Below, one piece after another: positions 21,037 to 60,240 of a stretch of DNA of 64,000 nt (the stretch's first letter is position 1; every line of letters starts with the position of its first letter). Below the pieces are notes generated by a model. It had not been told where the DNA came from. It worked only from the letters and a program-made list of their open reading frames with translations, and did no database searches. Source of the DNA: a virus (taxonomy: Duplodnaviria > Caudoviricetes). The position numbers and the translations under genes were made by a program. The stretch is taken from positions 22,352-86,351 of IMG/VR virus record IMGVR_UViG_2823732373_000001; one strand, 5' to 3'.

Positions 21037-21912
21037 ATGACCAAAGCAATTGTCGCAGCGCCGGCGCAAAAGGCGATCAGCGCGACCCGCGCAGAACTCG
21101 AAAGCGCCACCCTTGCCACCATCGCAGCCGCCTGCGGCGCAGCTGGTGCCAATCTCTCCGCCTTGAGCGGTGCAGCCAAGGCCTTGTCGGGGAGCGTCAC
21201 CAAAGCAGTCCTGCGCGTCATCGCAAAGGAACGCATCGGCGACGTCATCGCCCCCCTTCGCGAAGCCATCGGCAACGCTGGCAAGGGTGTTAGCAACCTC
21301 TCCACCATCCGCACGGCCGTGCTCAAGATGCACGTTGCCTATGGTGACGGCATGGCCCCTGCCGCAGGCGGCGACAGTGCGACGGGCGACGTGAGCGACA
21401 AGGCACCCGAAGGCGCGCCGGTCGGCGCCAGCGAAAAGACCGGCCCCGCCCTCCCCGTGTGGGAGACCGTGAGCGAAGCCAAGGAAAGCGGCGATGCTGC
21501 AGTGACTGCGGCCGTGAGCGCCTGCATTTCTTACGCCGGCAAAACGGATGCGGGCATCCCGATTGACCCGCGCATCGACACGACGGCGCGCGATGCACTC
21601 ATGGCGCGCATCAATGCGGCGTGCGCTGCATTTGGCCTGTCTGAAGACAGCGCGGGCAAGGTTCGCGGCCTGTACTTCAGCGCACTGCAAACCATCGTCG
21701 CCGATGCAGAACTGGCGAGCGAGACGGCCGCCGCCAACGCTGAACAGGCACAGCAGCAGGCCGACGATGCCGCGATCGTGGCCGACGCTCACGCTCAATT
21801 GCTGGCCGAAGTCGAAACCCTGCGCCAGATCGCGGCCGAAGCGAAGCGCATTTTCGGAATCAAAACCGACGTCGATCTGCTGACGGAAATGAAGATCACG
21901 GACGCGGCTTGA
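21037..21912 (+). CDS. First early gene, Ala-rich hypothetical protein
   Basis: AAAGGAAAAGAGAA RBS, 291 aa, phage-like codon usage. Confidence 0.8.
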   Translation: MTKAIVAAPAQKAISATRAELESATLATIAAACGAAGANLSALSGAAKALSGSVTKAVLRVIAKERIGDVIAPLREAIGNAGKGVSNLSTIRTAVLKMHVAYGDGMAPAAGGDSATGDVSDKAPEGAPVGASEKTGPALPVWETVSEAKESGDAAVTAAVSACISYAGKTDAGIPIDPRIDTTARDALMARINAACAAFGLSEDSAGKVRGLYFSALQTIVADAELASETAAANAEQAQQQADDAAIVADAHAQLLAEVETLRQIAAEAKRIFGIKTDVDLLTEMKITDAA

Positions 21913-22023
21913 ACGCCCGCGACGACGACACCGACAAGGCCGAAACCCTTGTCGGGGTTGCCGCCTGCGCTCGCTGAGCGCAGACGACAGCCCTTCCCTT
22001 TTGGACGCGCACGGAGACCTGCG

Positions 22024-22566
22024 ATGAAGCAACCACGCTTATTGACCGCCAACGGTAAGGCCAAGGCCGTCAGCCCCAACGGGGGACCGCGCAGCGGCTT
22101 TGAGGTGGTGGACCGGAACGGTTTCGTGCGCCTGGTCGGCAGCATGGCCACCGCTCCGCAGAACGATGCCGGCGTCTCGGACTTATCTCCGAGGTATGAG
22201 GAACTGGTCGACGGGGTGTGGCAGTCGGCTTCGTGGGCGACGCTGAGCCAGATCCGCCACCTACGCACGGACCGGGCCCGGCGCGCCTACTTCGCTGTGC
22301 GGGTTGGCCTGCTGCGTGAGCTGCCCGGGGATGCATACGGCGTCGTTGACGGGGAGGCATGGTGCTGTCCCCGCGGGTATGACCGCGACCTCGACCGAGA
22401 GAAGTTTCTCGCCAAGGCGTTGAAGGTGGGATTGCTCTCGCTGCGCGGGCGCACCTACAAGGTCCGGGAAATCCGACCCGACACGATTCAGCTGACCCGC
22501 GCCTCGGGCAGCGTCAACTACACCCGTGAGGCGCTGCTGGAGAGCATCGCCAGCGGCACTGTCTAG
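22024..22566 (+). CDS. Hypothetical protein
   Basis: GGAG RBS before ATG 22024. Confidence 0.7.
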   Translation: MKQPRLLTANGKAKAVSPNGGPRSGFEVVDRNGFVRLVGSMATAPQNDAGVSDLSPRYEELVDGVWQSASWATLSQIRHLRTDRARRAYFAVRVGLLRELPGDAYGVVDGEAWCCPRGYDRDLDREKFLAKALKVGLLSLRGRTYKVREIRPDTIQLTRASGSVNYTREALLESIASGTV

Positions 22567-22587
22567 AACCACAACAAGGACATTGAC

Positions 22588-22872
22588 TTGGACGACAACT
22601 ACGACTCGCGCCCCGTCAACGTCATCAGACTCGCGCTTGCCTGTGCGCAAGAGCGTCTGGGCATGTTTGACCCCGAGACCTGCCGCGATGATCACGACTT
22701 CTTCGTGGCCTACAACCGTGTGCAGACCTTGGAGGACGAGCTATTCACCGCCGAGGACCGCGCCCAGCGCATGGCCGAGCGTGTCGCCCAGAAATGGATG
22801 CATCGCTATGGCCCCCGACAACGTCGAGGCGGATTGGCGCTGATTCAGGAATTGATTCACGACTGGAACTGA
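22588..22872 (+). CDS. Hypothetical protein
   Basis: AAGGA RBS, TTG start. Confidence 0.6.
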   Translation: MDDNYDSRPVNVIRLALACAQERLGMFDPETCRDDHDFFVAYNRVQTLEDELFTAEDRAQRMAERVAQKWMHRYGPRQRRGGLALIQELIHDWN

Positions 22873-23124
22873 GTCGTTGACGGTGATGTGAGCCGGCGGC
22901 ACGCCCGGCGAGAGCGGCGCGCAGCGCCGCGGCCCTTGTCCTTGACGGGGCGATAACGCAGGCGCTGTGCGCCGACGTTGTCATTGGCACTTGCCGCTTG
23001 CCGCTTGCCGCTTGATGCCGACGTTGTCGGGGAACGAGCCCGCGCAGCGGGCGAGGGCCCTGGGCGAAAACCAATCCGAATTGCTTTTTGTTAGTGCCCA
23101 TCAACTGGGCGCGGGGGAGAAGCC

Positions 23125-23379
23125 GTGTCCACAAAAACTGATCTACAGCGGCGCGTGAGCCAGCTCGAGGCAAAGGCGCGCGCCGACGCGCGACTCATCG
23201 AGTCGATGCGCACCGAGAACTACGACCTCCGCTGGCAGCTTGGACTGACCGGCCAAGCGCAGGACGACCCCAACAAACCCTTCGAGCCCAACGGGCTGAT
23301 GGGAGTGCCTGGCTACGTGCAGGACCTGAAGGTCCGCCTGAAGGCCGAACTGAAATCCAAAGGAAGACGATATGCGTGA
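23125..23379 (+). CDS. Hypothetical protein
   Basis: GGGGAG RBS, GTG start. Confidence 0.65.
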   Translation: MSTKTDLQRRVSQLEAKARADARLIESMRTENYDLRWQLGLTGQAQDDPNKPFEPNGLMGVPGYVQDLKVRLKAELKSKGRRYA

Positions 23380-23647
23380 AATGCGTGACCGCGCGGCAGT
23401 CCTGTACGTGACCGTCGGCCCGTCGCCTCTGGGCATCCCCGTCAACGTCGGGGCCGGCGTGCCCCACTACGTCCCGACAACGCCAAAGGCATTGGCCCGG
23501 CGCCCGGCCGGCAAGCCAATCAGCCAGCTGTCGTCCATCGACCGCTTCCGCGAGGTCTTCCGCCCTGCCCCGGCGCGCCAGGCACCGACAACGTCGATGG
23601 GTCGGGCCTTGCGCTCGATCGAGAACTGGGTCGCCGACTGGCTTTGA
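23372..23647 (+). CDS. Hypothetical protein
   Basis: Overlaps the previous stop; AAGGA RBS. Confidence 0.6.
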   Translation: MREMRDRAAVLYVTVGPSPLGIPVNVGAGVPHYVPTTPKALARRPAGKPISQLSSIDRFREVFRPAPARQAPTTSMGRALRSIENWVADWL

Positions 23648-24018
23648 ATTTCGTCCGGGTTTAAAAGCCCCGACAAGGTCGAAAACGCCGGTTCAAGTGG
23701 CACTCAAGGTGTGCTGGTCGGCCAGGGGTGAGCAAGCCCTACCTTGTTGATTTCAAAAGACATTCACTGAGATTAAAGAGAAAAAAAGAAAATCTATAAG
23801 TGCCGCGGGGTCGGGGTGCTCTCAAGAAAAACTTCAACTTCTCAGCCCCTCACACCCTTCATCGGTACCCCTCGCAGAACTGCACCCCAAGTGCCACTTT
23901 TTAGGCTCTTCCAGCCCAATAAATTCTCTGCACGGACAGGGACTTAGATCCGGAATCGAACTCTGCGCAAACAGGTTTCAAGTGCCAATCGCCTCGCGCC
24001 TCTGGACTGACCTCGATC

Positions 24019-24423
24019 ATGAGCACCGCCCCGAACAAGAATCACCAATGGGTCGCAGCCTTCGGGTATCCCCGGCGACTCGTCCTGCTTGCGCCGGGTC
24101 AGACGGGGTTGTTCCACGTGCGCCCAGTGCATGGGGCGTCCCTTGCGCAGGCCCGAAACACCCTTGGCGGCGTCTGCAAGGCTTGGGTGGCCCACAACAC
24201 CGACTGGCACAAAGACTTCGGGCGCGGCGCAGTGCCGGCTGACTGCCTCATCCACCGACCACACCCCGACGGCTTGCTCGTCGGCCGGAGACCGCTCATC
24301 ACGGAACCGCCGCTGGACTTCGACAGGGCTCCCGACTACGTCTGGGACTTCACGCCGCCACCGCGTCGGCTCTCGTTCGCCGAGCGTCTCGAACAGATGC
24401 GCAAAGAGCGCGGCCTGGACTAG
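24019..24423 (+). CDS. Hypothetical protein
   Basis: 134 aa ORF in operon orientation. Confidence 0.6.
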   Translation: MSTAPNKNHQWVAAFGYPRRLVLLAPGQTGLFHVRPVHGASLAQARNTLGGVCKAWVAHNTDWHKDFGRGAVPADCLIHRPHPDGLLVGRRPLITEPPLDFDRAPDYVWDFTPPPRRLSFAERLEQMRKERGLD

Positions 24424-24804
24424 CTCCGGCCCACAAACAGAACTGCTGTCACGCAGCGCGCCGGGCGCCCCGACAACGACGACCGTACGGACCATGACCG
24501 CGAGCACCGGAACCAACCGGGGCCCGGCTTGAGTCGCGACCTTCGCCGTTGAGGGGATCCCGCCCGGCGCACCCGGCTGCGCATGACCTTGACCACCCCG
24601 CCCTTGCTGGCGGCCTCGTCGCCTCTGAGCGCCGACGTCGAACCCGGCGCAGAGCGATCTGCATAACAGGAGGAGCTGCCATGCACACCTTACCCGCATG
24701 ACCTGCCACGACAGTTAGAGATCTATTCGCTTCGGCAGGAGTTCTCCGCCGACTGCGCGGTGGAGCGCCCAAGGGCGCAAGCGCGACGTTCGGCAAAGCC
24801 GATC

Positions 24805-25389
24805 TCAGGCAAAAACTTCGAAGAGATATTTGATAAGTGCGCCAGCGGCTGCACCAGCAACCGCTATTCCGAGCTTGCGCGGCGTCGAATTCGCCTTACT
24901 CAGCTCGTCACGCATCTCGTCGATACGCTCTGCTTGCCTGGCTGAATTAGCCGATAGCTCGGACAAAGATTTTTCAATAGAAGCATTAGAAACGCGGCTT
25001 GATCGTATTTCGTCCGCACTTAGCGGGCGAATAGATGTGCCGTACCTTGCGTAGTACCCGCCAGAGGACGTTACCAACGAGGGTGACTTTTGCACCTCCA
25101 CATAGGTCACGTCAACGTTTCCGTGCTTCACCACTCCTGATTGCACGGAGATTTTCGGATGAAGCTTTTCCAGTGCGGCGGAAATTGCCTGCTCCGCCCT
25201 TTTGGAATTTACTCCAACTACTGTCGACGGCTCCTTAACTCCGATAAGGAGAATGCCGCCTTTGGTATTTGCAAACGCAGCCAAATGGCTCGCGATCACG
25301 TCTGGGTTTGGCACAGACGTCTTTAGCTCAAGAGTCGGGCTCTCGCCCGCGGCCACAAGTCGATCTATATCGATTTTCTCTAACGCCAT
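24805..25389 (-). CDS. Schlafen/AlbA_2-domain protein with C-terminal hydrophobic anchor
   Basis: GESPTLELK, AAFANTKGGILLIGVKE, YYARYGTS; GGAGGGG RBS. Confidence 0.88.
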   Translation of the reverse strand: MALEKIDIDRLVAAGESPTLELKTSVPNPDVIASHLAAFANTKGGILLIGVKEPSTVVGVNSKRAEQAISAALEKLHPKISVQSGVVKHGNVDVTYVEVQKSPSLVTSSGGYYARYGTSIRPLSADEIRSSRVSNASIEKSLSELSANSARQAERIDEMRDELSKANSTPRKLGIAVAGAAAGALIKYLFEVFA

Positions 25390-25477
25390 AACTTCCCCTC
25401 CAATTTTTTTTTAAAGCTTTTGGCTGAAGGAATGTAACGCAGAAATCACACAGCCTTCGCGATCTGAGCACGTATCA

Positions 25478-25837
25478 ATGACACTCCACCCCGACAAGAT
25501 CAATCCCATCATCCTGGCCATGTTCGTCTGGCAAGGCTTCATGGAAGCCGAGCCGTGGGGCGACGAGGCTGCGGACCAGCACGGTGGCCAGATCGGCGCG
25601 GCCTGTAACCTGGCCCCCTACGTCGAGATCCTCGCCGATTCGATCAACGCGTTTCTGGCGACCGACCCCGACACCGACTTCCCGGGCGTGCTGGACTACG
25701 AGGTCACCGAACGCTTCGGCGCCTGGCTGCGCCTCAACCCAACAGCCAGTACCCGCGGCGCGCGCGCCGAGGCAGACAAGCTGGTCGAGTCGTTCTTTGC
25801 GGCTCGCAACAGTTGCGCGATCGGGGTCTCGTCGTAA
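25478..25837 (+). CDS. Hypothetical protein
   Basis: 119 aa ORF, phage-like codon usage. Confidence 0.7.
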   Translation: MTLHPDKINPIILAMFVWQGFMEAEPWGDEAADQHGGQIGAACNLAPYVEILADSINAFLATDPDTDFPGVLDYEVTERFGAWLRLNPTASTRGARAEADKLVESFFAARNSCAIGVSS

Positions 25838-25949
25838 TCGCAATGCACATGCACCAGTTCAAGGTGTGCTTCGTACCGCGCCAACTCGTGATCGGACTCG
25901 GAAGCGTCGAGGTTTGGCGGGTTGCCGGCCTCGAGCGCCACGAGTGGGC

Positions 25950-26231
25950 CTACCCTGCCATGGGTAGTAGCGACTGAAGGCCCCGCTTCTTCCGGCTCTC
26001 GTCAATCTCTTCGATGAGAGTCTGAAGTTCGTCCAGCCGATCGCAGCGACGTTTGATATCACCGTCTTTCGCGTGGATGACCAGAGCACCACCACGACGA
26101 ATGCCCTCTGCGGCGCCTACCAGCACGCTCGCAACAGGGATGACTGATTGGCTGTTGGACATGTCATCCCACGTCTGTTCAACCACCCAGATTTTTCCGT
26201 CATCGAAATGGACCATGCTTCTGATTGACAT
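25950..26231 (-). CDS. Hypothetical reverse-oriented cargo protein
   Basis: Start moved to MSIRSMVHF; occupies the gap between plus-strand genes. Confidence 0.6.
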   Translation of the reverse strand: MSIRSMVHFDDGKIWVVEQTWDDMSNSQSVIPVASVLVGAAEGIRRGGALVIHAKDGDIKRRCDRLDELQTLIEEIDESRKKRGLQSLLPMAG

Positions 26232-26429
26232 TGTTTGCTCGGGCTTGAATTGATACGTTAAAGCCGCAGCCAAGAGTGGCATCGGTCTCACGGAATTGAA
26301 GCATAGCTACAGCTGAAAAGGCCCCGAGCTAACCCCATTCGCCCGTCACCGCCAACCGGCCCCGACAACGTCGACGGTCGCGTTGCGGCGTGGTGGTCCC
26401 CGGCAACTTCAACACACCAAGGAAACAAC

Positions 26430-26888
26430 ATGCACACCTTCAAAGTCACCCCCCTTCAACGCGCCAACGCCCTGCACGCCCTCAACGACTTCTGGCCAAC
26501 CATCAAACCCGAGCAGGTCTCCGGGCGGCTCAACTACTGGCGCACCGAAAGGGATTGCGAAGGCGAGCCCGAATTCGTCGACTTCGATGCGCCGCCCACC
26601 TGCGGCACCGTTGCATGCTTCGGCGGGTGGGTCGAATGGCATGCCCCATTCCGCCGGCAGATGGGTCTGAACCCCGACAAGGGCGAGGCGGACATCGAGG
26701 CCCTGCACGGGTTGTTCGGCACGGACAGTGATTCACACACGCTAAACATCTTCGCCGAGCGCAATTGGGGTTTCGACGGGGACATCGGTTTCGAAGGCTC
26801 CGACCACGAACTCGTCTCACACCGCCTGCGCTGGCTGATCGACCACAGCGAGATGTCTGCTTGCGCTGTTGGCACGAGTGCAGATTGA
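26430..26888 (+). CDS. CGTxACFGGW-motif phage protein, copy 1
   Basis: AAGGA RBS; motif shared with 30397-30810. Confidence 0.75.
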   Translation: MHTFKVTPLQRANALHALNDFWPTIKPEQVSGRLNYWRTERDCEGEPEFVDFDAPPTCGTVACFGGWVEWHAPFRRQMGLNPDKGEADIEALHGLFGTDSDSHTLNIFAERNWGFDGDIGFEGSDHELVSHRLRWLIDHSEMSACAVGTSAD

Positions 26889-27041
26889 ATCGAATTTACC
26901 GCCATCGTTGGAGAGGTCGACTTGCTTGGCCCGATTGGCATCGGGCACGCCGCGCAATGCGGGAAGCCCCATCATCAATGACTACGTTGCCGCTGCCAAG
27001 CGGACACTAGTGCCAATGTGGCCTCGGCAACACTGCTGCCG

Positions 27042-29513: not shown

Positions 29514-29897
29514 CGCCTGATGGTGCCAGTGATCGGCAAACGATGCATCAGGACCGATACGTGTAAGTCGGGGCATGAACCGCTTGGCGGCCAACAGCGA
29601 GACCGAATTGCACACCTACCGGAACACACCACGTACATCCAACGGAATAAAAACATACGAGGGGTTCATGACTGCGCGAACCAACCCTTGCACGTGAGGA
29701 CTTTCGCGATGGGCGGTGGGCGCCCCTCGACGTGCTGACGACCCGCCCCCGCCCTCCTTTGAACAGTGCCGCTGGCCACCTCAACGTGCAACGCCAGCAC
29801 CCCGCCCCGACAACGTCATAGACCACAAAGGCCGACCTGGCTGCAACCAGGAAAGCTGGCCGGCGGCGTTGGTCGGGGCACCTATTCACCACCCGAG

Positions 29898-29924
29898 GGG
29901 CTGTCTCTAGAGACAGCCCTTTTT
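29898..29924 (+). terminator. Intrinsic terminator inside the early region
   Basis: GGGCTGTCTC-TA-GAGACAGCCC-TTTTT. Confidence 0.75.
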
Positions 29925-29940
29925 CGTTTCGGAGACTCAA

Positions 29941-30021
29941 ATGAAATTCGCATACCTCGCGGCCTGCAAAGGCCACCTCGTGCCCGTGTTCCGCCGCCTC
30001 CACCGTCACCCGGTGCGCTGA
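29941..30021 (+). CDS. Small 26-aa ORF MKFAYLAACKGHLVPVFRRLHRHPVR
   Basis: GGAG RBS; stop 2 nt before the next ATG; below the ORF-track cutoff. Confidence 0.5.
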   Translation: MKFAYLAACKGHLVPVFRRLHRHPVR

Positions 30022-30023
30022 AC

Positions 30024-30395
30024 ATGGACAACCAGCAGTTCTTCGACAAGACCGTCGCCTTCCTCCGTACACAGGGCGAGGCCGCCGTCACTGCCAACGG
30101 CGCATGCCGCTACCGCACTTCACCGTCCGAGGACAGAGTTCTCATGTGCGCTGTCGGCTGCCACATCCCCGACAACGTCTACAGCTCGGGTTTCGAGGGC
30201 GTCTCTGCGAGCGAGCTGCTTCGCGTCAGCAATGACGTGTGCGCGCTGTTCGGCGGCGTCGACAGGGCCCTGATCGAAGCAATGCAGCTCGCACACGACG
30301 ACGGCCTCGCCGTACACGGCTTGCACGCATTCGAGGATCAGGTCGAGAACATCGCCTTCGACTACGGCCTCAAGTACATCACGCCAGAGGCCTGA
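30024..30395 (+). CDS. Hypothetical phage protein (CxYR...CAVGC)
   Basis: Start MDNQQFFD; CRYR, CAVGCHI and Q-x-AHD motifs. Confidence 0.75.
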   Translation: MDNQQFFDKTVAFLRTQGEAAVTANGACRYRTSPSEDRVLMCAVGCHIPDNVYSSGFEGVSASELLRVSNDVCALFGGVDRALIEAMQLAHDDGLAVHGLHAFEDQVENIAFDYGLKYITPEA

Positions 30396-30396
30396 C

Positions 30397-30810: not shown

Positions 30811-30849
30811 CGAGCCACAGCCTTACAACAATGGCCGCTTGGAGCCCAA

Positions 30850-31437: not shown

Positions 31438-31511
31438 GGTCGCTCCTTAAACCCGCCCGCGAGATTGGGCGCTAGGTCGAAGTATGCCGACACCCCGACA
31501 ACGACAACCCC

Positions 31512-31536
31512 AAAGCCCGCCTCGAGCGGGCTTTTT
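31512..31536 (+). terminator. Intrinsic terminator
   Basis: AAAGCCCGC-CTCGA-GCGGGCTTTTT. Confidence 0.75.
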
Positions 31537-31555
31537 CATGCCTGAAAGGATTTCG

Positions 31556-49523: not shown

Positions 49524-52500
49524 TCATCGACGGGAATTCCTACCTCAACTCCTCCCTGCTCAAGGGCATCGACCACGAGAACGGCTTCAAGGTCCAGACC
49601 GAAGACGGGAAGCAGGTCCAGGTCAATCGCGCTGACTACGGCGTCGAGGGCTTCTTCGACAAAGTGGTCGCTGATATCGACCACTTCGGCATCGCGCCGC
49701 GCCAGATCATCCTGGTCTGGGACGGCCGCAACTCCAAGATGCGCCGCCGCGCGCTGCTGGCTCGTTACAAGGAAGGCCGAGACAAGATCGAAGAGGTCAA
49801 CATCGAGCTGAACAAGGCTCGCGACATCTGCACCCAGATGATGCTCGACCTCGGCGCCACCGTGATCGAGCAGAAGGGCATGGAGGCCGACGATGTCATC
49901 GGCTACCTCTGCAAGACGCTGCCCGGCCGCAAGGTCGTGGGCACCAACGACGGTGACCTCAGCGTGCTGGTCGACGAGCCGACAGACACCCATGTCTGGC
50001 GCCTGGGCGAGATGAACGGCCAGCCCTACGGCCCATTCCCGCACCGCTTCATCACTCTCTACAAGGCGCTCGTGGGCGATTCGGGCGACAAAATTCCGGG
50101 GGCGGCGAAGTTCGGCGACGGCAAATTCGTGGATCTGGTGCGCATCTTCGGCATGGACGGCCTCGAGCTCATGCAGGACTTGATCCTGACCGGAAAGCTG
50201 GCGCGGCTGCGAGAGGATGTGGCTGACTTCCCTGCCCTGCAACTGATCATCGACAGCGCCGACCAGGTCGCAATCTCATGGCGCTGCGCCGAGCTGCACG
50301 TCGAGGACGTGAACACGCTCAACAACCCATTGGAGATCCAAGCCGGCATGGTGAAGACCTGGGCGTCGCTGCCGGCCGAGCGCCGCGTTGTGATGCTGCG
50401 CCGCTTCTATGCGACCAACACCCTCGTGCACGCAAGCAACTATGAGGAGGTGAAATCCAAACTGGCGGCCCGCTTCGCGCAATCGCCCTTCGTTGCACTG
50501 GACATCGAGACCTCCTCGTCCGAGGAGTCCGATGAATGGACCGAGCGCACGATGAAGGCGCTGGAAGCCGACCGCGAGAGGATAGACACGCTGGGCCATG
50601 AGCTCACGGGCATGTCCCTGACCTTCGGCGACAACACCCAGTACACCATCTACATGACGGTGGACCACCGGGAGACGCTCGACCACAAGAACATCACCGA
50701 GGCCCAGTGCCGCGAGGTGGTCGAGATGATCCCCGAGTCCCTCTTCACCGTCATTCACAACCGCAGCTTCGAGTTCAACGTGCTGTATCGCCAGTGGGGA
50801 GCCGTATGGGCGGACAACGGCTGGGGCGGCTTCGTGCCGAATGCGATCGACACGGTGATCGGCGGCTCGTACGTCGACGAGAACCTTCCGAAGGGCTTGA
50901 AAGAGCGCAGCGCGCGCCACCTCGGCTACAAGCAGACCACTTACGAGGAAGTCACCACCCGCAAGGGCAAGGTGGGCACTCTCTCTGGCGGCGTGGTGAA
51001 GTCGATCTACCAGATCGAGGTCTCACCGGCCGTGACTGGCCCAAACCCGAAGTCGACCGAGGCGAAGCCGCTCAAGGACGTCATCCTGGAAAAGGCCGTC
51101 ACCGAAGACTGGGAGATCCGCCAGTACAAGATGAAGGAGCTGACCGGAGAGCACGTGCTGAGCTACGGCTGCGACGACACGATGTGCACCGCGGCGCTGC
51201 ACACCCACTTCCAGATGGTGATGGAGCTCGAAGGGACCTGGGGCGTCTACCTACAGGTCGAGCAGCGGCCCCAGTACTTGACCAGCTTGGCGAACATCCA
51301 GGGCGTCAAGATTTCGATGGCCAAGCTGAACGAGATGGAGCGCCGCGACGACCAGCGGTACAAGGAGGGCTGGGACACGCTGCTTGAGTTCCTTCTTGCT
51401 CGTGGCTGGGAAGGCACCGTGTGCCCCGAGTTCGAAGGCAGCCTCGAGCCATCCGACGTCAAGCTGGCAGCCGGCATCGTTCTCGGTGGCGACTACACGA
51501 CCAAGAAGCGCAAGCACAACGCAATGGCGCTGGACATGCGCGAACAGTTCCCCGACAACCACCTGGCCAGCGTGCTCGCCAACTTCGTCGAGGCGGATGA
51601 AATCGAGGGCGTGAACAAGCTGGTTCGCGAGCACTTCACCGGCGAGCCACAGATCAACTTCGGTTCGCCGAAGCAGATGCAGAACTTGTTCTACAGCGTG
51701 ATGGGCATGACGCCGCGCGTGTTCAACGCTCTGACCGAGAAGCAGCGAGAAATCCCCGAGATGGCAGCCGCCTTCCGCAAGCTGCGCTCGATCAAGGACG
51801 GCAAGATGAAGATGGCCGACCTCACGAAGGAAGAACGCACGTTGCTGGTGTCGAAGGCCTCGACCGACGACGACTTGGTCGAATTCTCATTGGCCAAGGA
51901 CACGTTGACGGACGAGGTGCGCAAAGCACTCAAGGCCTATCAGTCGGTGCGGTCCGTCATGACTCGTCGAAGCCTCTTCTACAAGACCTACAAGGCGATC
52001 CCGCACTGGCGCACTGGCCGAGTGCACAGCAACATGAACCAGTGCGAGGCGGTGACGCGTCGATATTCGAGCAGCGGACCGAACCTGCAGCAACTGCCCA
52101 AGCTGGGCGACGGCGCCGAGTTCCGCGGAATCATCCAGCCGCACAAGCCGACCGCGGTCATCGTGTCGTGCGACTTCTCCGGCCAGGAACTGCGCCTGAT
52201 GGCTCACCTGTCGAAAGACGTGAATCTGACAGCCTGCTACGTAGGCGACGACCTGAAGGATGTGCACAGCCTGACGGCGGCGGCCGTATCCGAATACCTC
52301 TGGGACAAGCGCCTGCCCTATCCCGAATTCATCAGCCGGATGGAGGGGGATGACAAGGAGGTCGCAGGAAAGGCCAAGGAGCTGCGCAAAGACTCGAAGA
52401 CCGTGAACTTCGGTACGAACTACGACATGCAGGCGCCAGCCCTTGCCATCAAGTTGAAGGTCGAAGACGAGGTGGCTCAGCAGTTCATCGACGCGAAAGA

Positions 52501-53160: not shown

Positions 53161-53428
53161 CCGCAATGTGCCGACTGCACCTGTCAGCGTCTGCTTCGAT
53201 CCAGAGCTTCACCCCGCCCCGCGCGGCGTGACTCTCTGGGTTGTCGGACCGGGAGGCTCCGGCTACAAGGGGCACTGGTACGAGGGCGCAATCGCGTGGG
53301 CGTACCTTCCCCAACTTCCAGTGAGCGTGAAGGCGCGACTGGACGAGCTCACACAACAAAAACTACAAAACGAGCGCATACGTGACCAACAAAATCATCC
53401 CGAGCTTCCGGAAGAGCAAATTCGCTGA
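53153..53428 (+). CDS. Hypothetical protein
   Basis: Operon packing; AWAYLP. Confidence 0.6.
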   Translation: MADRNVPTAPVSVCFDPELHPAPRGVTLWVVGPGGSGYKGHWYEGAIAWAYLPQLPVSVKARLDELTQQKLQNERIRDQQNHPELPEEQIR

Positions 53429-53876
53429 TCGGGGCAAAGACGCCGAGAACGCGGCGCACAAGTACCTCTCACAGTGGGCCGGCGGCTCGGCCAACCGCGA
53501 GTTCAACCGCTTGGTCGACTCCAAGGCGGCGGGCCGCATTATCAAGGCCTCGAAGGCCGATTTCGAGTTCTTCTACTTTCCCACCAACAGCGTGGCCCCG
53601 TTCTTCGGACTGCTCGAGGTGAAGGAGACCGAGCACGAGTACCGACTCGCCCGCTCCAAGGTTTCGCAGATGCCGAGCTTGGTGAAGCGCGCGAAGTGCG
53701 GGGGGACCTGCCTGGTCCTCGTGCACCACAGAACCATCGGCAAATGGCGCTGCATCGACGCGCGCTGGATGCGCGACAACGGCGACAAGGGCAGCTGGAA
53801 CATCGAGGCGTTCCCCGCCTTCAACACGCCCGGCGAGGCGCTTTGCCACGCCAGCCCGGCGCTGTGGGCCCTGTGA
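53382..53876 (+). CDS. RecU-like PD-(D/E)xK Holliday junction resolvase
   Basis: RGKDAE, ADF, LLEVKET. Confidence 0.7.
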   Translation: MTNKIIPSFRKSKFADRGKDAENAAHKYLSQWAGGSANREFNRLVDSKAAGRIIKASKADFEFFYFPTNSVAPFFGLLEVKETEHEYRLARSKVSQMPSLVKRAKCGGTCLVLVHHRTIGKWRCIDARWMRDNGDKGSWNIEAFPAFNTPGEALCHASPALWAL

Positions 53877-54172
53877 GCAAGGAGCGCTACTGCCCCTACC
53901 ACCAGGGGTTCGTGGCGGACGTGGGGTTCAAGACGATCGTCGACGCCCGCTCCAACACGAAGCGCGGCATGTGCCCGATCTGTCAGGAAAAGCGCCGCAT
54001 GCCCCGCTCCGCCTTACAGGCGCTCGCCGATCGCGATCGAGCCGAACGCTCCGCCAAGTCTCAACGCATCGCCGCGGAAGCGCGCGAAAGGAAGCTAAAT
54101 GCGAACACTGATCATCTCGGACCTACATCTGGGCGTGAACCGCTCGGGCGGCACCACCCTAGCCTCCCTTAA
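53873..54172 (+). CDS. Small zinc-finger protein
   Basis: GTGA overlap; CPYH and CPIC. Confidence 0.55.
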   Translation: MSKERYCPYHQGFVADVGFKTIVDARSNTKRGMCPICQEKRRMPRSALQALADRDRAERSAKSQRIAAEARERKLNANTDHLGPTSGREPLGRHHPSLP

Positions 54173-55202
54173 CGCCCTGCGCGAATACGGTCACACGAAA
54201 CATTGTGACCTGCTGGGGCTGGCCAATGACGGCGATACCGTCATCGTCAATGGAGACCTCTCGGACGTCTACGACATCCCCCTCGGTCAGGCGATCGAGA
54301 TCTACGTCGTTGTCGGGGACTTCCTGCGCACGAAGAAGTCTTCGCGCGTGGTCTGGGCTGTGGGCAACCACGACTTGAGCAAGGACTCGAGCAAGCTGGG
54401 CACCGTGGCATTCCTCGGCGCGCTGCTTGAGGCCCAGTTCCCGGGCCGATTCCAGCTGCTCGACCGGGCCGGCTTGTTCGAGTCGGACACCTACATCATC
54501 CCGCACGTGGCGAATCAGGAAATGTTCGACATGGAACTGACGCGCATCCCGACCGGCGTCAAGTTCGTGCTGCTGCACTGCAACTACGACAACGAGTTCG
54601 CCGGCGCGATGGACCACTCGCTGAACCTGTCGCGCAAGCAGGCCAAGATGCTCAAGGAGCGCGGCATCACGATGGTTCTGGGCCACGAGCATCAGCAGCG
54701 CGACCTCATGGGTGGCGCGGTCGCCATTGTGGGCAACCAATTCCCCAGCTCGGTGAGCGACTGCTTGAGCAACGAGACGAAGCGCTGCGCGGTGATCGAG
54801 AACGGTGAGCTCTCGTTCATCCAGACCTGGTCGCGAGACGACAAGGTCGGGTACTTTAAGGAAGTCGACTGGCGCGACGTGGCCAGCTTCATCCACGAGC
54901 CGAGCGGCTTCATCCGCGTGGTCGGCAACGCCAAGGGCGAAGAGGCCGCCGAGATGATCAAGGCGATTTCGACGCTTCGCTCCAAGAGTGAAGCGTTTGT
55001 CATCACCAATGCCGTGCAGGTCGAGCAGGCGGAAGGTCTCGCTGAGATTGCCGCAAGCGTCGAGGACGTGCGCAGCGTCAACGTGATCGACCTGCTGCTT
55101 GAAATCCTCGATCCCGAGCAGGGGCGCGTCGTGCGCCAGCTCACCGGCCGCGAGGTCGAAACCCAGCCCATAGAAAGCGAAGAACTGGAAACCGCATGCT
55201 GA
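54099..55202 (+). CDS. Mre11/SbcD-like metallophosphoesterase nuclease
   Basis: SDLHLG, NGD, GNHD, LH, GHEH; adjacent to an SMC ATPase. Confidence 0.88.
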   Translation: MRTLIISDLHLGVNRSGGTTLASLNALREYGHTKHCDLLGLANDGDTVIVNGDLSDVYDIPLGQAIEIYVVVGDFLRTKKSSRVVWAVGNHDLSKDSSKLGTVAFLGALLEAQFPGRFQLLDRAGLFESDTYIIPHVANQEMFDMELTRIPTGVKFVLLHCNYDNEFAGAMDHSLNLSRKQAKMLKERGITMVLGHEHQQRDLMGGAVAIVGNQFPSSVSDCLSNETKRCAVIENGELSFIQTWSRDDKVGYFKEVDWRDVASFIHEPSGFIRVVGNAKGEEAAEMIKAISTLRSKSEAFVITNAVQVEQAEGLAEIAASVEDVRSVNVIDLLLEILDPEQGRVVRQLTGREVETQPIESEELETAC

Positions 55203-57325
55203 ACAAGATCACCCTCACCAACTTCCAGCGCCACCGCAACCTCGAGGTGGTTTTCAACGCGGGAATCTCCGCGCTGCGCGGCTCGAACGAAGCCGGAAAG
55301 TCCACCCTGATCCGTGCGATCTGCTATGCGCTTTTCGGTACGAAAGCGCTGCCCATGTCGCTTTCCGAGACCGTCACCTGGGGCGAGCCCGAGGCCTCGC
55401 TCAAGGTGGTGCTCGAGTTCACTACGGATTCGGTCGTCTACACGGTCAAGCGTGGCAAGTCCGGCGCCGAGATCAACTACGACGGCGGCATCGTGACGGG
55501 CCAGAACGAGTGCACAGCCTTTGTGGCCAAGCTGCTCAAGACCGACGCAGTGAGCGCCTCGCGCCTCATGCTGGCCAACCAGAACGAGATCCGCGGTGCG
55601 CTCGAGAAGGGCGCGGCCGAAACCACGAAGCTGATCGAGCAGCTCGCCGAATTCGACCAGCTCGACAACCTGATCGAGACGATGGAGGGCAGCCTCACCC
55701 TCGGCAGTCCGAAGGTGGCCGAGGCCGCAATTTCCAACGCCGAGATACAGCTTGAGCAGGCGCGCAATGCCGCGGTCCCCGTCAACCTCGCGGAATACGA
55801 CCGCCAGATCACCGAGCGCCAGCGCGAGCTCGAGGTAGCTGAAGCCGCCCTCGCCCGCCTGGACGCCGAGATTACGGACCTGTGCAACAAGGCGAACAAC
55901 CTCACCGTCCAGGCCAAGGACCGGAAAGCCGCCGAGAGCGCCGTGCTGGCGGCCGAGAGCCGCCTCACCACCGCCCGGGCCAAGCTCGAGGCCGCGCGCG
56001 GCGTGGCGAAGCCCGCGGACGTCGACCTGGTCGCACTGCGCGGCCGACTCGTCGACTTGGGCCAGATCGCTGTGGTGCGCCAGGCGCGCACCGAGCTGGC
56101 CAACCTGCTGGGCGAGCCCGCACGCGCCAAGGAGGACCGGTTCGAAGGCACGATGGAGACCCTGGTCGAAGAAATCGCTCAGACCCGGCGTCAGGTGAAC
56201 AGCGCCGCGCGCAGCCGCGACGACCAACGCACCGCCGCGCATCTGTGCGAGGTGAAGATCTCGACCGGCAGTTGCGCGACCTGCGGCCAGGACATTGGGC
56301 ACCTGCCGGAAGTCGCCGCGCGAAACGAACACCTGCGCGAGCAGGTTGCGACGGCCCGCGCTGGAGAGGCGGCATTCGCCAAGCAGCACGACGAGCTGGC
56401 CGACTACCTAAAGGAGCTCGAGGCCATCCAGAAGGAGGCCCGCCCGCGGGTCGACGCCATCAACCGCCTTGGGCAATACGTCAAGCCAGCGGACGCCCTC
56501 CTGCCACCGACCCTCGAGTGGACTGGTGGCGAGATCCCCGACGATGTCGGGGTCGAGGTCTCGCGCATCGAGGCTCAGATCTTCGACTTCGAGAAAGCCC
56601 GCCGCGCGTTCGACATTGCCTCTGGGCAGGCTGAAGCGGCCGAGCACGAGGTGGACGCGGCCGGCGCTGAACTGTGCGCGGCGCAGACCCGGCTCGAGTC
56701 GCTGCCAGTGGTGGATGCCACGGCCGCCCAAAGCTCGGTGGTTTTGGCGCAGAACCGGCGCCCGGAAGTCAATGGCGAGGTGCGCACCGCCCAGCGGAAC
56801 CTGGACAACGAGGTGCACGGCAAGGCTGCTGCAATCGAGGCCTACCAGCGCGCGGTGAGAGCCGCCGAGACGGCAGAGCGAACGCTGGTCGCGCGCCGCA
56901 AGGAGCTCACCGAGCTGGCGTTCAACAACGGACTGCTCAAGGCGGTGCGCGCGGCGCGCCCGGTCATCGCCGATAGATTGTGGAACCTCGTGCTGTCGGC
57001 TGTTGGGAAATACTTCTCAGAGATGCGCGGCTCGAGGTCGCGCGTCACCAAGGACTCCGACGGGTTCAAGGTGGACGGGCACACGGCGTCGACCTTGTCG
57101 GGATCGACCCTGGACATCCTCGGCCTTGCCATTCGCGTGGCCCTGACGCGCACCTTCCTTCCCACGGCACCGTTTCTCGTCCTGGACGAACCAGCGGCCG
57201 CCATGGACGGGAGACGCACCGAGCTGATGCTCGGATTCCTGGTGACCTGCGGCTTCCCGCAGACCCTGCTGGTGACCCACGAAGACATCAGCGAGTCGGT
57301 CGCCGACAACGTGATCACGATCTGA
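55196..57325 (+). CDS. Rad50/SbcC-like ATPase
   Basis: GSNEAGKS, coiled coils, CATC zinc hook, LSGS signature, VLDEP, VTH. Confidence 0.92.
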   Translation: MLNKITLTNFQRHRNLEVVFNAGISALRGSNEAGKSTLIRAICYALFGTKALPMSLSETVTWGEPEASLKVVLEFTTDSVVYTVKRGKSGAEINYDGGIVTGQNECTAFVAKLLKTDAVSASRLMLANQNEIRGALEKGAAETTKLIEQLAEFDQLDNLIETMEGSLTLGSPKVAEAAISNAEIQLEQARNAAVPVNLAEYDRQITERQRELEVAEAALARLDAEITDLCNKANNLTVQAKDRKAAESAVLAAESRLTTARAKLEAARGVAKPADVDLVALRGRLVDLGQIAVVRQARTELANLLGEPARAKEDRFEGTMETLVEEIAQTRRQVNSAARSRDDQRTAAHLCEVKISTGSCATCGQDIGHLPEVAARNEHLREQVATARAGEAAFAKQHDELADYLKELEAIQKEARPRVDAINRLGQYVKPADALLPPTLEWTGGEIPDDVGVEVSRIEAQIFDFEKARRAFDIASGQAEAAEHEVDAAGAELCAAQTRLESLPVVDATAAQSSVVLAQNRRPEVNGEVRTAQRNLDNEVHGKAAAIEAYQRAVRAAETAERTLVARRKELTELAFNNGLLKAVRAARPVIADRLWNLVLSAVGKYFSEMRGSRSRVTKDSDGFKVDGHTASTLSGSTLDILGLAIRVALTRTFLPTAPFLVLDEPAAAMDGRRTELMLGFLVTCGFPQTLLVTHEDISESVADNVITI

Positions 57326-57571: not shown

Positions 57572-58747
57572 ATGAACAAGGAACTGCTGGACGCGCTCCG
57601 GTACAAGAGCGAAGGCACTGACCTCGACTTCAAGAGCGAACAATACCGTTTTGCGGGCGGCAACGATTTCGAGAAGGCCGAGATGCTCAAAGACATCTTG
57701 GCCATAGCAAATGCGTGGCGAGACGGGACTGGATACATCCTGCTCGGGTTCAAGGAAAACCGTCCGAATTTGGCCGAAGTCGTGGGTATCACCGAGAGCA
57801 TTGACGACTCGCGCCTCCAGCAGTTCGTCAATAGCAAGGTGACACCGAAGCTGACGTTCCGCTACGAGGAACATCTTTTCGAAGGAAAGAAGGTCGGAGT
57901 CATCGCAATTCCAAAGCAGAAGCGTCCGTTTTCAATCGTCAATCAATTTGGCAAGTTAAAAGGCAAGATGGTGTATGTTCGCCGCGGCAGCAGCACGGAG
58001 GAAGCAGAGCCTATCGAGATTGGAAAGATGGCTTTGGCAGATGCTGGTCGCGGAGAAGTGCGCTTGGACCTACAGGTGCTCACTCCAGGCAATGAGCCGT
58101 TACCGGACACGTTCACGTTGAACTACTTGCACTACACCGAGAATTTCCCGGACTTTGCAAGTGCTGCTCCAGAGCGCAGCGGCCCGTTCGGCATCTCAAA
58201 CTTTTCCCCCATGCGCGATAACGAGGAGTTCTGGCGCGAGTATGCAGAGTACATCCGAGTTCACAACGGGCTCGTTCAAATGCAGTTCGCTCTACGCAAT
58301 ATGTCAGATACGCAACTCTCTAACGCCAAGCTTGAAGTGACCGTGGAGTCACTCGATGGGCAGGGCTTTCAGATGCTCGACGACGATGACTTGCCCGAAC
58401 GGCCTGTATCCCAATGGAATCCCTTGCAGGGCGCTCGCAACTGGACGGGGATGATTGCACGACAAAACCCAGGGCTCGTCATTGACGACAGTGGTATCAC
58501 CCCTGTGTGCGACATTCGCTTTGGCCTACTTTTGCCAGGTGAGGAGAAGCGGTCGGACAAGCTCACCGTGGTCCCGCTCGGGCCGGGAAAGCTTCGCTTG
58601 CGCCTTCGCATTCTCGCCAGCGAACTACCGGCACCTCATGAAAGTGAGCGTGTGCTGGACATGAATGGAGCAGCCATTCGACTCGACTTTGAGGGTTTCA
58701 GAGGTTTTATGCGCGAGCGGCTTGAGCGAGAGAATCGCAACGTTTGA
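57572..58747 (+). CDS. Schlafen/AlbA_2 protein with beta-rich (Ig-like) C-terminal domain
   Basis: SEGTDLDFK, KDILAIANA, GYILLG, YVRRGSST; C-terminal QFALRN...LLPGE. Confidence 0.85.
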   Translation: MNKELLDALRYKSEGTDLDFKSEQYRFAGGNDFEKAEMLKDILAIANAWRDGTGYILLGFKENRPNLAEVVGITESIDDSRLQQFVNSKVTPKLTFRYEEHLFEGKKVGVIAIPKQKRPFSIVNQFGKLKGKMVYVRRGSSTEEAEPIEIGKMALADAGRGEVRLDLQVLTPGNEPLPDTFTLNYLHYTENFPDFASAAPERSGPFGISNFSPMRDNEEFWREYAEYIRVHNGLVQMQFALRNMSDTQLSNAKLEVTVESLDGQGFQMLDDDDLPERPVSQWNPLQGARNWTGMIARQNPGLVIDDSGITPVCDIRFGLLLPGEEKRSDKLTVVPLGPGKLRLRLRILASELPAPHESERVLDMNGAAIRLDFEGFRGFMRERLERENRNV

Positions 58748-58830
58748 TCGCCGCTTCGGCCCAAAGCTGCCGGTGAGCAACGAGCCAAGCAGACGCTCGA
58801 TGCGCAACGGCCCAACCAACCAGCCAGGTC

Positions 58831-59547
58831 TCAGATGGCGTCGATCATTTCAGCAATTGCATCTTTTCCGGTGTAGCCCGTAACGAAGCTCCAGCCGGCG
58901 AATGCTGACCACATGAACTGGGAGAGTGGCTTCAATTGATCTTCGTCATCAGACCAGTAACGGCTGCGTTGTAGAACCTGGGTGAAATTTCGCATGAAGC
59001 CAAACACCTTCGCATCGGAAACTTCGATCGCAGTAAGTGCGTATTCGAGCTCGGTGCGAAACATGTCGAGTTCGCGCACGAGGGCGGCGACACCCTGTTC
59101 ATTCAGGCCGTTTAGCACGGCATGCCAGCGATCTTGATCGTCTGAAACCTTGACCTTGAAGAACTCCCTGAACTTTTCCAGATCCATGAGTTCGTCAGTG
59201 AGATCCGAGACGGCGGGCTCGTGACACGCCCATAAAAAGTGAGTTATGCACTGGCGTTTGAGGTCCTCATAGCGGCGAAGCAAATGGGCCTTAACGCGCC
59301 GCCTCTTCTGCCACGCTGGGAGCCTGACAACTAAGACGTAAACAAAGAGGCTGACGACAACACCTACAGCGATATCGAAGACGACTTGGTTACCCGTTGA
59401 GAAGGGTTTGAAAACCTGCTCAAGCGACGTTCCCTTGACGAAATCTGGCCGTGGGTCTGTGCTTGACTTAAGCATGAGTATCGAACTGGCCACGCCGAGT
59501 ACCCAGAGCGCCAAGTCGAGTGCGTTTCGATAAAGGAATGATCGCAT
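58831..59547 (-). CDS. 2-TM protein with helical cytoplasmic domain
   Basis: Two hydrophobic segments followed by KRRRVK. Confidence 0.7.
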   Translation of the reverse strand: MRSFLYRNALDLALWVLGVASSILMLKSSTDPRPDFVKGTSLEQVFKPFSTGNQVVFDIAVGVVVSLFVYVLVVRLPAWQKRRRVKAHLLRRYEDLKRQCITHFLWACHEPAVSDLTDELMDLEKFREFFKVKVSDDQDRWHAVLNGLNEQGVAALVRELDMFRTELEYALTAIEVSDAKVFGFMRNFTQVLQRSRYWSDDEDQLKPLSQFMWSAFAGWSFVTGYTGKDAIAEMIDAI

Positions 59548-59849
59548 CGGTTTATTTTGTGTGAGGCCAGACATGGGGTGCCAGCTGACAACCATGCGGC
59601 AAAGCGTGTTGGCTAAGTCTCGAGCGCCTTGAGTTGCGTATGCAGGTTAGCGGTAGATGGGCGCTTGCCAGATGGCCGAATAACAGCCCTAGCCTGCGCG
59701 GTCGAGGCGGCGATGTAGTTCGTAGCCGGCCCTGCTTATCCCGCACTTTAATGCAGCGCCTCAGAATTCCATGCGCTGCCGCAGAAATCAATGGCAAGCA
59801 ACAAATGCCCGACGAGCTGTCTTGGAGCAGTCGATTGCGCGTCAGCAAT

Positions 59850-60146
59850 TTAGTCGCAATGGGCCGTCTCAGGGTCCTTCGATGTTGTTGCCGTTGCCAG
59901 GCCATTTTTTGTACTCTGGCGCAGCGCTTGCAATTTGCATTCGGCCGCACGAATCTGCTCTGACATCGGTTTGAAGGGGTCAGCGCTCGACGTCGCGATC
60001 GATCTGTCACCTGCTGCACACGGTGGCGTCGTCCAGTAGGTGAACTGGTCTCGCCCCTGACATTTATGCAGCTCATAGGGATAGAGCACGTTCGCCGTGC
60101 TCGCTCCTGCACTTAGAAATAGGGCAACAGTGAGGGGAAATTTCAT
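59850..60146 (-). CDS. Small exported protein (DUF4124-like)
   Basis: Signal peptide; HKC...Y...PC pattern. Confidence 0.5.
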   Translation of the reverse strand: MKFPLTVALFLSAGASTANVLYPYELHKCQGRDQFTYWTTPPCAAGDRSIATSSADPFKPMSEQIRAAECKLQALRQSTKNGLATATTSKDPETAHCD

Positions 60147-60240
60147 GATGTGACAAATGTACTAGCTACTTGGTTCAGCACACCAATCAAATACAGCACC
60201 TCCCCCACCCCGACAAAAACAAGAAGAAACGGGTTTCACA

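Follow-up and report, generated by a model that had tools for sequence, protein, structure and literature searches.

A conserved, oriented 13-nt word in a family of temperate phages, tentatively read as a stoperator-like DNA site

Introduction

Stoperators are described in two reports as 13-14-bp asymmetric sites that occur at 20-30 copies per genome, are syn-oriented, and are read by a monomer with two DNA-binding domains (PMC9283540, PMC6550527). Here we analyzed a prophage window of 64,000 nt (bases 22352-86351 of the 86,351-bp virus record IMGVR_UViG_2823732373_000001) in which an asymmetric 13-nt word, CCCCGACAACGTC, is repeated through the early and replication genes, and we compared this word with the described systems that it most resembles. 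To our knowledge, genome-wide oriented words that are read by a protein are rare in phages, and stoperators, which are confined to actinobacteriophages, are the only well-studied case. The system considered here would be a second, independent one, found in uncultured temperate phages of Gram-negative soil bacteria.

Several other systems share some of its features. The C1 operators of phage P1 are asymmetric sites of a monomeric repressor, scattered over a large temperate genome and in some cases arranged as inverted pairs; we know of no syn-orientation rule along operons, and of no embedding in coding sequence, for these operators. Chi and KOPS are 8-nt words of the host chromosome that are read by RecBCD or FtsK and that influence which codons and peptides are used. 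The ops/RfaH and lambda nut systems also have short oriented words, placed in operon leaders before terminators. Finally, the promoter-early stem-loop (PeSL) cassettes of T4-type phages and the boundary sequences of lambdoid phages are parallels for a repeat that acts as a recombination linker.

Results and Discussion

The word is strongly over-represented in the window

An alignment of 73 copies from four phages gave the consensus CCCCGACAACGTC(A/G)A, with a sharp 5′ edge and an asymmetric logo, i.e., one without dyad symmetry. Position 12 is the least conserved of the 13 positions in the logo, and no conserved position beyond the word was found from 20 nt upstream to 35 nt downstream of the start of the 9-mer CCCCGACAA, which is the exact core that we counted. 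This 9-mer occurs 17 times in the window (13 on the plus strand and 4 on the minus strand), whereas 100 dinucleotide-preserving shuffles gave a mean of 0.51 and a largest count of 3. A first-pass annotation, made from the letters alone, had reported 16 exact copies against about 0.8 expected; the enrichment stands, with both figures revised. As that annotation had noted, 12 of the exact copies lie in one block of 21.1-31.5 kb (21184-31501), the 13 plus-strand copies follow early transcription, and none was found in the late genes, the cargo genes or relA; exact copies are also absent from the first 43.5 kb of the contig and from all sequence left of 21184. When up to two mismatches to CCCCGACAACGTC were allowed, the contig held 37 sites (26 plus and 11 minus) versus 5 for a reversed-word control, and the window copies occupy different reading frames. 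The near matches reported earlier at 23472, 23583 and 37203 lie within one to two mismatches of the 13-mer, while the one at 21929 is weaker and is a hairpin arm. The proposed extension of the best copies to a quasi-palindrome, CGAC-AAC-GTCG, did not hold up, as it is not conserved, with A at position 14 in 31 copies but G in 27.

The idea that the copies are promoters was rejected, with no -10 or -35 element at a fixed distance in the 73 aligned copies and nothing placed at the sites by a promoter scan. A literature search with the word and its complement gave no phage-motif context among the 20 papers listed of 134 that matched; by their titles these look like primer or unrelated hits.

The word is conserved across a phage family and absent from its hosts

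To collect relatives, we searched with the exonuclease, the polymerase and the word, and copies were then counted over whole records; several of the tests reported here reuse related genomes. The family comprises temperate phages of ~70-85 kb with Variovorax-type (Comamonadaceae) hosts. Nine family genomes, whose core replication proteins are 40-90% identical to those of the window phage, carry 190 exact 9-mers versus 7.1 expected under a first-order Markov model, and the relatives have 15-34 copies each. In a de novo search, the word supplied the top over-represented 10-mers in all six members analyzed (G000, G002, G003, G007, G009 and the G035 prophage). The word is missing altogether from three relatives that are more distant (polymerases 37-40% identical), one of them being a 68.7-kb record rated 84% complete. 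No other dispersed word was found in the motif-less relative G165, where the top repeat is a local tandem coding repeat. Cultured phages and plasmids gave no megablast match for positions 21000-33000 of the window, and the polymerase is <28% identical to the best-listed INPHARED matches, with all 2341 matches <60%. A locus search based on the repressor returned four loci, from unrelated phages and with 0 copies of the word, and one with ORF 25478 returned no locus.

Variovorax paradoxus ISL-3 harbors a related phage whose polymerase is 78% identical to that of the window phage. Its 6.6-Mb genome contains 83 copies of the 9-mer, 19 of them in two prophage contigs, which corresponds to ~1 per 100 kb outside prophage DNA versus ~1 per 2.4 kb inside it. 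Within the host family, 149 of 151 genomes contain the 13-mer 0-2 times, like the reversed-word control; the two exceptions have 6 and 10 copies, of which 5 and 10, respectively, lie in prophage DNA. These low host counts rule out a host uptake sequence, a repetitive extragenic palindromic (REP) element or a host Chi word. Whatever its reader, the word also provides a simple sequence tag for spotting this phage family in metagenomes.

For a codon null, we shuffled synonymous codons gene by gene, using the called genes of eight phages. Sense copies in coding sequences (CDSs) numbered 80 versus 22.7 expected (shuffle maximum 33), a 3.5-fold excess, and antisense copies 27 versus 2.7 (shuffle maximum 8), an excess of ~10-fold. 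The tripeptide Pro-Asp-Asn (PDN) was found 70 times versus 16.6 expected (4.2-fold), whereas permuted residues gave 0.4-2.1-fold; 45 of the 70 occurrences are spelled C-CCC-GAC-AAC-G, and Val follows in 33. Given this excess of PDN and the prevalence of one DNA spelling, it is the DNA word that shaped the proteins and not the reverse. The word thus constrains protein evolution (PDNV excess), whatever its reader may be.

These controls bear on the explanation that the word has no function and is a by-product of codon usage, a common peptide or base composition. Such an explanation could draw on the single frame (xxC CCC GAC AAC, in preferred codons) that holds 116 of the 141 sense copies in the transcription arms, on the general preference for CCC before Asp (308 of 537) and on the C-rich sense strand. 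We give it next to no credence, since it leaves unexplained the excesses over the shuffles on both strands, the excess of PDN, the intergenic arrays of up to 3.3 copies per kb and the absence of the word from sister phages and from hosts of the same composition; we consider it refuted by the shuffle, PDN, host and sister-phage controls. The word is a real cis-acting signal of this temperate phage family. The comparisons that the first-pass annotation had proposed all came out in favor of such a signal: host DNA shows no similar density, codon-shuffled sequences fail to reproduce the counts, and the word is kept across the family.

Copies are oriented with genes and clustered near the repressor

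All genomes were turned the same way before their layouts were compared, and the bounds of the control regions were set by eye. Relative to the local genes, 97 of the copies outside the control regions are syn-oriented and 18 are anti-oriented (p = 3e-14). In G009, 17 of 19 early-arm copies point rightward (>) and 10 of 12 late-arm copies leftward (<), and in the late arm of G007 all 7 copies point leftward; the late-arm copies of G007, G009 and G035 point along the late genes. The late arm of the window phage and its closest relatives has almost no copies (none in the window phage itself). The earlier suggestion that the word marks the early region is therefore correct for this phage only, as relatives carry syn-oriented late-arm copies, while the broader proposal, a cis signal found phage-wide and pointing along transcription, gains support and extends across the family. 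Copy positions in core genes are not kept between distant phages, which indicates that density and direction are conserved and place is not.

The control regions next to the repressor, roughly 3-6 kb in length, contain 75 of the 190 copies (~40%), at a density of 2.2-3.3 per kb versus 0.2-0.3 per kb in the arms. A recurrent order was seen in these regions, with three rightward copies, three leftward copies, a gap and three more rightward copies (> > > < < <, gap, > > >). In G007 the gap is AT-rich and ~400 nt long, with three leftward copies on one side and three rightward copies on the other; in G003 it is ~700 nt. The copies on either side of the divergent promoter region face outward in both phages. 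Among adjacent copies no more than 200 nt apart, we counted 45 tandem, 23 convergent and 4 divergent arrangements. As a separate observation, these two distant family members share a repeated palindromic word, TTTCA(C/T)AATGTGAAA, which lies in the AT-rich promoter gap in G003 (around oriented position ~56300) and in the control gap in G007, and which is likely a classical operator distinct from the 13-mer.

A stoperator-like reading and its candidate readers

The reading that we tentatively favor, and which we regard as quite possible though short of probable, is that the word is an asymmetric double-stranded DNA site for a phage-encoded protein that would act on transcription in an orientation-dependent, stoperator-like manner. 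We prefer it because many asymmetric copies are syn-oriented, because copies pile up in the control regions, and because sites are located at xis, at terminators and at a promoter-like stretch. One sequence-specific phage protein would bind both the dense array around the early control region and the single syn-oriented copies spread through the transcription arms (in the window, through the early/replication arm only). On syn-oriented sites this protein may block, insulate or otherwise modulate RNA polymerase. Binding could silence the lytic operons and xis, or shut down early transcription, and could also seal off cargo genes inserted among the early genes; the identical 13-mers would, as a by-product, provide microhomologies for module exchange. 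We infer that a protein reads the word as DNA, which protein that would be, and that transcription is the process it controls.

As described in the stoperator reports, the Cluster A stoperators (L5, Bxb1, TipsytheTRex) are similar in having a 13-nt asymmetric word with 20-30 or more copies per genome, mostly oriented along transcription in both arms, with extra copies around the early promoter/repressor locus (here, a dense array next to the control region); in both systems the reader could plausibly be a monomer that has two DNA-binding domains. The P1 C1 operators are likewise dispersed asymmetric sites with some inverted pairs, but they overlap promoters.

Hosts do not use the word, and its reader is therefore more probably encoded by the phage than by the host. 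The best candidate binder is a 124-aa predicted winged-helix protein (49149-49523, plus strand), whose gene follows a DksA/TraR-like zinc finger gene and lies directly upstream of the polymerase gene in nine family phages. This protein was detected in 9 of 9 motif-bearing phages, with 33-83% identity, whereas its profile, which did recover the positive controls, found nothing in 3 of 3 motif-less relatives. The winged helix is predicted at residues 11-70 with pLDDT >88, and the atlas neighbors of the protein are named MarR-like, which may serve as a lead only. The first-pass annotation had pointed to two small helix-turn-helix (HTH) proteins, encoded at 35877 and 49149. The second is a good candidate as a conserved predicted winged helix; there is no matching evidence for the first, which had no Pfam or PHROGs match and tblastn homologues only in the close relatives G001, G002 and G004.

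The second candidate, as an alternative, is the double-HTH domain of the repressor (19785-20840, minus strand), a protein with an S24 self-cleaving peptidase domain. G003, G006 and G007 encode stand-alone proteins of 150-160 aa that match HTH_psq and align with the N-terminal half of this repressor. From these alignments the repressor appears to carry two HTH units, which could allow a single monomer to read an asymmetric 13-mer. The whole protein looks like a fusion of this double-HTH region with a self-cleaving S24 domain of LexA-like type. Among the other proteins considered, that encoded at 44566 resembles only viral Pam3_Gp34/DUF5895 clusters, and that at 53382 is a RecU/Hjc-like junction resolvase and so no candidate for a site-specific nickase. 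The 44566, 53382 and 49149 proteins matched nothing in PDB by sequence and nothing significant in Pfam, with E-values up to 1. The isolate lysogen V. paradoxus ISL-3 and a candidate reader together make the system testable.

Several observations weigh against the stoperator-like reading. Stoperators outside promoters are described as lying in short intergenic spaces, while 189 of 210 arm copies of the present word (11-mer, ≤1 mismatch) are inside called CDSs, at 0.34 per kb in CDSs versus 0.22 per kb in intergenic sequence, and are evenly spread along genes, a pattern closer to Chi-type polar words than to stoperators; these genes were called by a crude rule based on GC content at third codon positions (GC3), and CDS/intergenic and sense/antisense counts carry error from this. 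The word is invariant while the repressor-like proteins diverge, with 21-33% identity and different putative recognition helices, and a repressor-like profile found nothing in the complete genome G009, which holds 25 copies; this is unlike the behavior of immunity operators. In the window, the exact copies at 21184 and 21949 and a near copy at 22342 run against the predicted direction of the first early genes, and the gap between the repressor and the first early gene (20840-21037) contains no site even with up to two mismatches, in agreement with an absence that had been noticed before. For the winged-helix protein, the fold matches are of Z-alpha, Fur/Zur, PadR and ArsR types with weak E-values (0.08-0.3), and its link with the word amounts to one clade versus another and is therefore suggestive but not independent evidence. 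Gene direction is also confounded with the presumed direction of replication forks, so that the orientation rule cannot separate transcription from replication.

Further differences from stoperators are that ~1/6-1/4 of the copies have the anti orientation and close pairs converge, that this phage has no copy in its repressor/early-gene gap, and that the host is a Gram-negative betaproteobacterium. Stoperators, the term used in the first-pass annotation, remain the closest analogy, but with copies in genes and a word that stays invariant while the repressor diverges or goes undetected, the system is not a proven member of the stoperator class as defined.

Inverted pairs point to DNA rather than RNA

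Several intergenic copies have an imperfect inverse copy after them: such a copy (≤1 mismatch) was present within 200 nt downstream of 15 of 92 copies versus upstream of 3 of 92. Three structures of this kind are found in the window, namely a 9-bp hairpin at 21929-21957, a ~80-nt hairpin at 29805 and a long palindrome that we call element A. Each arm of an inverted pair is simply a consensus site in its own right, the two arms show no complementarity beyond this, and folding energies have no strand bias (23 of 58 pairs favor the plus sense). Both convergent and divergent arrangements can fold, and hairpin formation is therefore not the reason why convergent pairs outnumber divergent ones. We read the inverse pairs as inverted DNA sites and not as RNA structures. 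More generally, reading of the word as DNA rather than RNA is suggested because antisense copies are ~10-fold enriched, folding lacks a strand bias, and convergent pairs exceed divergent pairs by 23 to 4. A role through RNA structure was rejected on the folding result, along with RNAalifold on element A, which gave 2 compensatory pairs among 4 sequences; a search of Rfam at the gathering threshold found only tRNA-Val.

The strong sense bias of the copies would be accounted for by a co-transcriptional signal, present in the non-template strand or in RNA as in the ops/RfaH and nut/N systems, that loads an antitermination or processing factor for read-through of the cargo-gene terminators; alternatively, the inverse copy might sequester the word in hairpins that mark RNA ends. 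Tandem copies in the leaders of both divergent early transcripts of G003 and G007 are consistent with this, as are the bias of inverse copies to the downstream side and the placement of the 29805 and 31493 copies just upstream of the two clear plus-strand terminators of the early region. We nevertheless find such a signal unlikely. Antisense copies exceed the synonymous null ~10-fold, no folding asymmetry between strands or compensatory pairing beyond the consensus was seen, most arm copies are in translated ORFs and evenly spread, and hosts show no use of the word. No NusG/RfaH-like, KOW or N-like protein was found among the ORFs scanned, a search in which small divergent factors could be missed. 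The ops and nut words also differ in number and kind, occurring once or twice per operon and acting as single-stranded DNA or RNA, whereas here there are dozens of copies with antisense enrichment. The pure RNA signal that the first-pass annotation had entertained is weakened by that enrichment and by the lack of folding asymmetry.

A possible polar signal for replication or recombination

The embedding of arm copies in CDSs, evenly spread, 74-84% co-oriented and at ~1 per 3 kb, resembles Chi or KOPS, and raises the possibility, somewhat unlikely in our judgment, of a polar replication/recombination signal. The control array would then be an iteron-like origin beside an AT-rich unwinding region, and the arm copies would be read by the primase-helicase, the SNF2 helicase, SbcCD, the exonuclease, the resolvase or possibly the winged-helix protein; they would work as a Chi- or KOPS-like word specific to the phage, mark sites of priming or re-loading, or be nicked in a strand-specific way. 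Positions that differ between distant phages while density is kept would fit, as would the AT-rich stretches within the site cluster and the flip of orientation at this cluster, with a second flip near the opposite side in the circular G009. The invariant word accompanies a conserved replication module, the conserved winged-helix gene precedes the polymerase gene in the nine family phages, and the phage encodes SbcCD and a junction resolvase. Chi and KOPS themselves are similarly over-represented within coding sequence, with one copy per few kb, 75-90% co-orientation and two flip points.

Against this, the early arm is far denser than the late arm in most members, the window phage having no late-arm copies, and copies occupy regulatory places (xis, terminators, the promoter-like stretch). 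In a T7-type GTC priming site the T would fall at position 12, and no other position of the 13 is less conserved. The directions of forks and of genes are confounded, and the flips coincide with switches in gene direction. Host RecBCD or FtsK is not the reader, given that the host does not use the word; Chi and KOPS abound in the host, whereas the present word is phage-specific, 13 nt long and arranged in a dense bidirectional control-region array. In a more specific version, which we consider unlikely, the word would be a phage-private polar "self" signal, a viral analogue of Chi or KOPS radiating both ways from an iteron-like origin. In this version its reader would be the replication/recombination machinery of the phage or the winged-helix protein encoded next to the polymerase, and selection for the word would have been strong enough to rewrite proteins, as in the PDNV excess. 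A reader belonging to the replication/recombination machinery would make the word a viral "self" signal of a new kind.

Module joints and element A

The word also marks places of module exchange. Homology with relatives begins exactly at the 31493 copy (G002) and at the 37203 near copy (G002 and G004), and it ends ~20-35 nt past the 23668 copy (G002) and the 30167 copy (Variovorax prophage). Across four phages, 43 of 254 homology breakpoints were within 30 nt of a site versus 13.9 expected, in pairs that are not independent. Such joints are what one would expect if the word were a recombination linker without regulatory role, promoting cassette exchange at module borders of a hyperplastic early region. 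We consider this very unlikely: sites account for 17% of the breakpoints, both features favor gene borders in the control region and are thus confounded, and a linker leaves unexplained the orientation rule, the copies in core and late genes and the triplets that flank the promoter gap. PeSL cassettes are similar in combining repeats at accessory-gene borders, a hyperplastic early region and mosaic joints, but in the present case there are no promoter hexamers at a fixed distance, an inverse partner is found at ~1/6 of copies, and copies occur in core and late genes. We take the module joints at the word as a by-product of microhomology and not as its main function.

Element A is a long imperfect palindrome (24445-24590, plus strand; -76 kcal/mol for 156 nt folded), whose 5′ arm is the copy at 24468..24480 (plus). 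It is kept in G001, G002 and G004, with an invariant TGCTGTCACGCA just upstream. The corresponding elements (L013:17745-17905, L043:10513-10670 and, on the minus strand, L009:13180-13285) bring the range across the four phages to -66 to -80 kcal/mol over the 156 nt folded. Element A might act as a hairpin at an origin, as a non-coding RNA or as a stop in both directions.

Individual copies in the window

The leftmost exact CCCCGACAA (21184..21192, minus) is antisense to a predicted plus-strand ORF at 21037-21912, and the next exact copy (21949..21957, minus), just past the stop of this ORF, forms with the weaker near match at 21929 the two arms of the 9-bp hairpin or palindrome. A near copy, CCCCGTCAACGTC (22611..22623, plus), has the commonest variant, A6 to T. 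Two perfect 13-mers follow, one at 22813..22825 (plus), 59 nt before the stop of ORF 22588-22872 and with an imperfect inverse copy 51 nt downstream, and one at 23020..23032 (minus) that is convergent with it. Three near copies on the plus strand (23437, 23472 and 23583, within 23437..23595) occupy two frames in the 91-aa ORF 23372-23647, and a copy with one mismatch in the 13-mer (23668..23680, plus) lies 21 nt past this ORF and is followed by an AT-rich stretch. As a side observation, a second word, AAGTGCC(A/G)(C/A), occurs with its complement at least 5 times at ~22985-24000, in and around the AT-rich stretch 23700-24000, and G002 and G004 have similar words at the corresponding position. 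The role of this second word may be that of an operator or iteron.

Beyond element A, an exact copy at 25489..25497 (plus) is 11 nt past the ATG of ORF 25478-25837. A perfect intergenic 13-mer (26360..26372, plus) lies 62 nt upstream of ORF 26430-26888, whose G001 homologue has a copy upstream as well, and an exact copy within this ORF (26672..26680, plus) is in the Pro-Asp-Lys frame. The perfect 13-mer at 29805..29817 (plus) is the 5′ arm of the ~80-nt imperfect hairpin, which is followed by an intrinsic terminator at 29895-29922. Another perfect 13-mer (30167..30179, plus) lies ~20 nt before the point where homology with the Variovorax prophage stops, and the copy at 31493..31505 (plus) directly precedes a terminator hairpin (~31509-31535) and the GDSL-lipase cargo gene. 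The 29805 and 31493 copies precede the only two clear plus-strand terminators of the early region, both of which follow cargo genes.

The near copy at 37203..37215 (plus) has two mismatches, is exact in G004, and has a conserved promoter-like TTGACT stretch ~60 nt downstream. A copy within the primase gene (42279..42291, plus) is found at the same place in G001, G002 and G004, and these phages also share the copy at 45510..45522 (plus), which encodes Pro-Asp-Asn-Val at the exonuclease N-terminus, 8 nt past an ATG of the DnaQ-like exonuclease gene. Two exact copies are within the family-A DNA polymerase gene (51550..51558, plus) and, in antisense, within an SbcD-like gene (54310..54318, minus; also in G002 and G004). 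The last exact copy (60208..60216, plus) precedes the ATG of the excisionase-like ORF 60241-60444 by 24 nt, and the Variovorax prophage has a copy at the same place. The placement at gene boundaries that the first-pass annotation had described is thus borne out in part, for the 25489, 45510, 60208, 29805 and 31493 copies.

Gene plan and other repeated sequences

Late genes (tail tube, capsid, S49 protease and terminase) occupy the minus strand up to ~16.8 kb and are followed by the repressor, and the early and replication genes start at 21037 on the plus strand. The early arm encodes, on the plus strand, the SNF2 helicase (39877), the primase (41681), the DnaQ-like exonuclease (45460) and the family-A polymerase (49514), in addition to a MazG-like protein, a dNMP kinase and the DksA/TraR-like zinc finger protein. 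The RecU/Hjc-like Holliday-junction resolvase gene (53382-53876) is located beside the SbcCD-like nuclease genes (54099-57325), which suggests recombination-dependent replication. At the right end are the excisionase-like ORF (DUF1233, E 9e-5), a tyrosine integrase (60150-61691) and, on the minus strand, tRNA-Val (61634-61710), which follows the integrase gene, is likely the prophage attachment site and is followed by the host relA. The sense strand is C-rich (negative GC skew) in both transcription arms, which is the opposite of the usual G-rich sense or leading strand.

Four cargo stretches of lower G+C are interspersed with the early genes, at 24805-25389 (minus), 27042-29615 (minus), 31556-32272 (plus) and 57572-58747 (plus), and they contain zero copies of the word. 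Their products are two Schlafen/AlbA_2 proteins (one of them encoded at 24805-25389), an 857-aa protein ending in a SEC-C motif (27042-29615) and a GDSL lipase with a lipoprotein-like signal. These may be defense or lysogenic-conversion genes.

In the repressor/early-gene gap, a stretch of 37-39 bp at 20931-20969 is 97% identical in G001 and the Variovorax prophage, while its flanks are ~70-80% identical or unalignable. This stretch is probably the true operator/promoter of the immunity switch.

A near-identical translation start region, in 8-10 copies, was observed on many early genes of G003, G007, G009 and the G035 prophage (e.g., L017-L020 and L164-L168); it reads TTTGGAGTCCAAC-ATG, or GGAGTTTCAC-ATG in G035. 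These shared start regions are reminiscent of the start-associated sequences of Cluster K mycobacteriophages.

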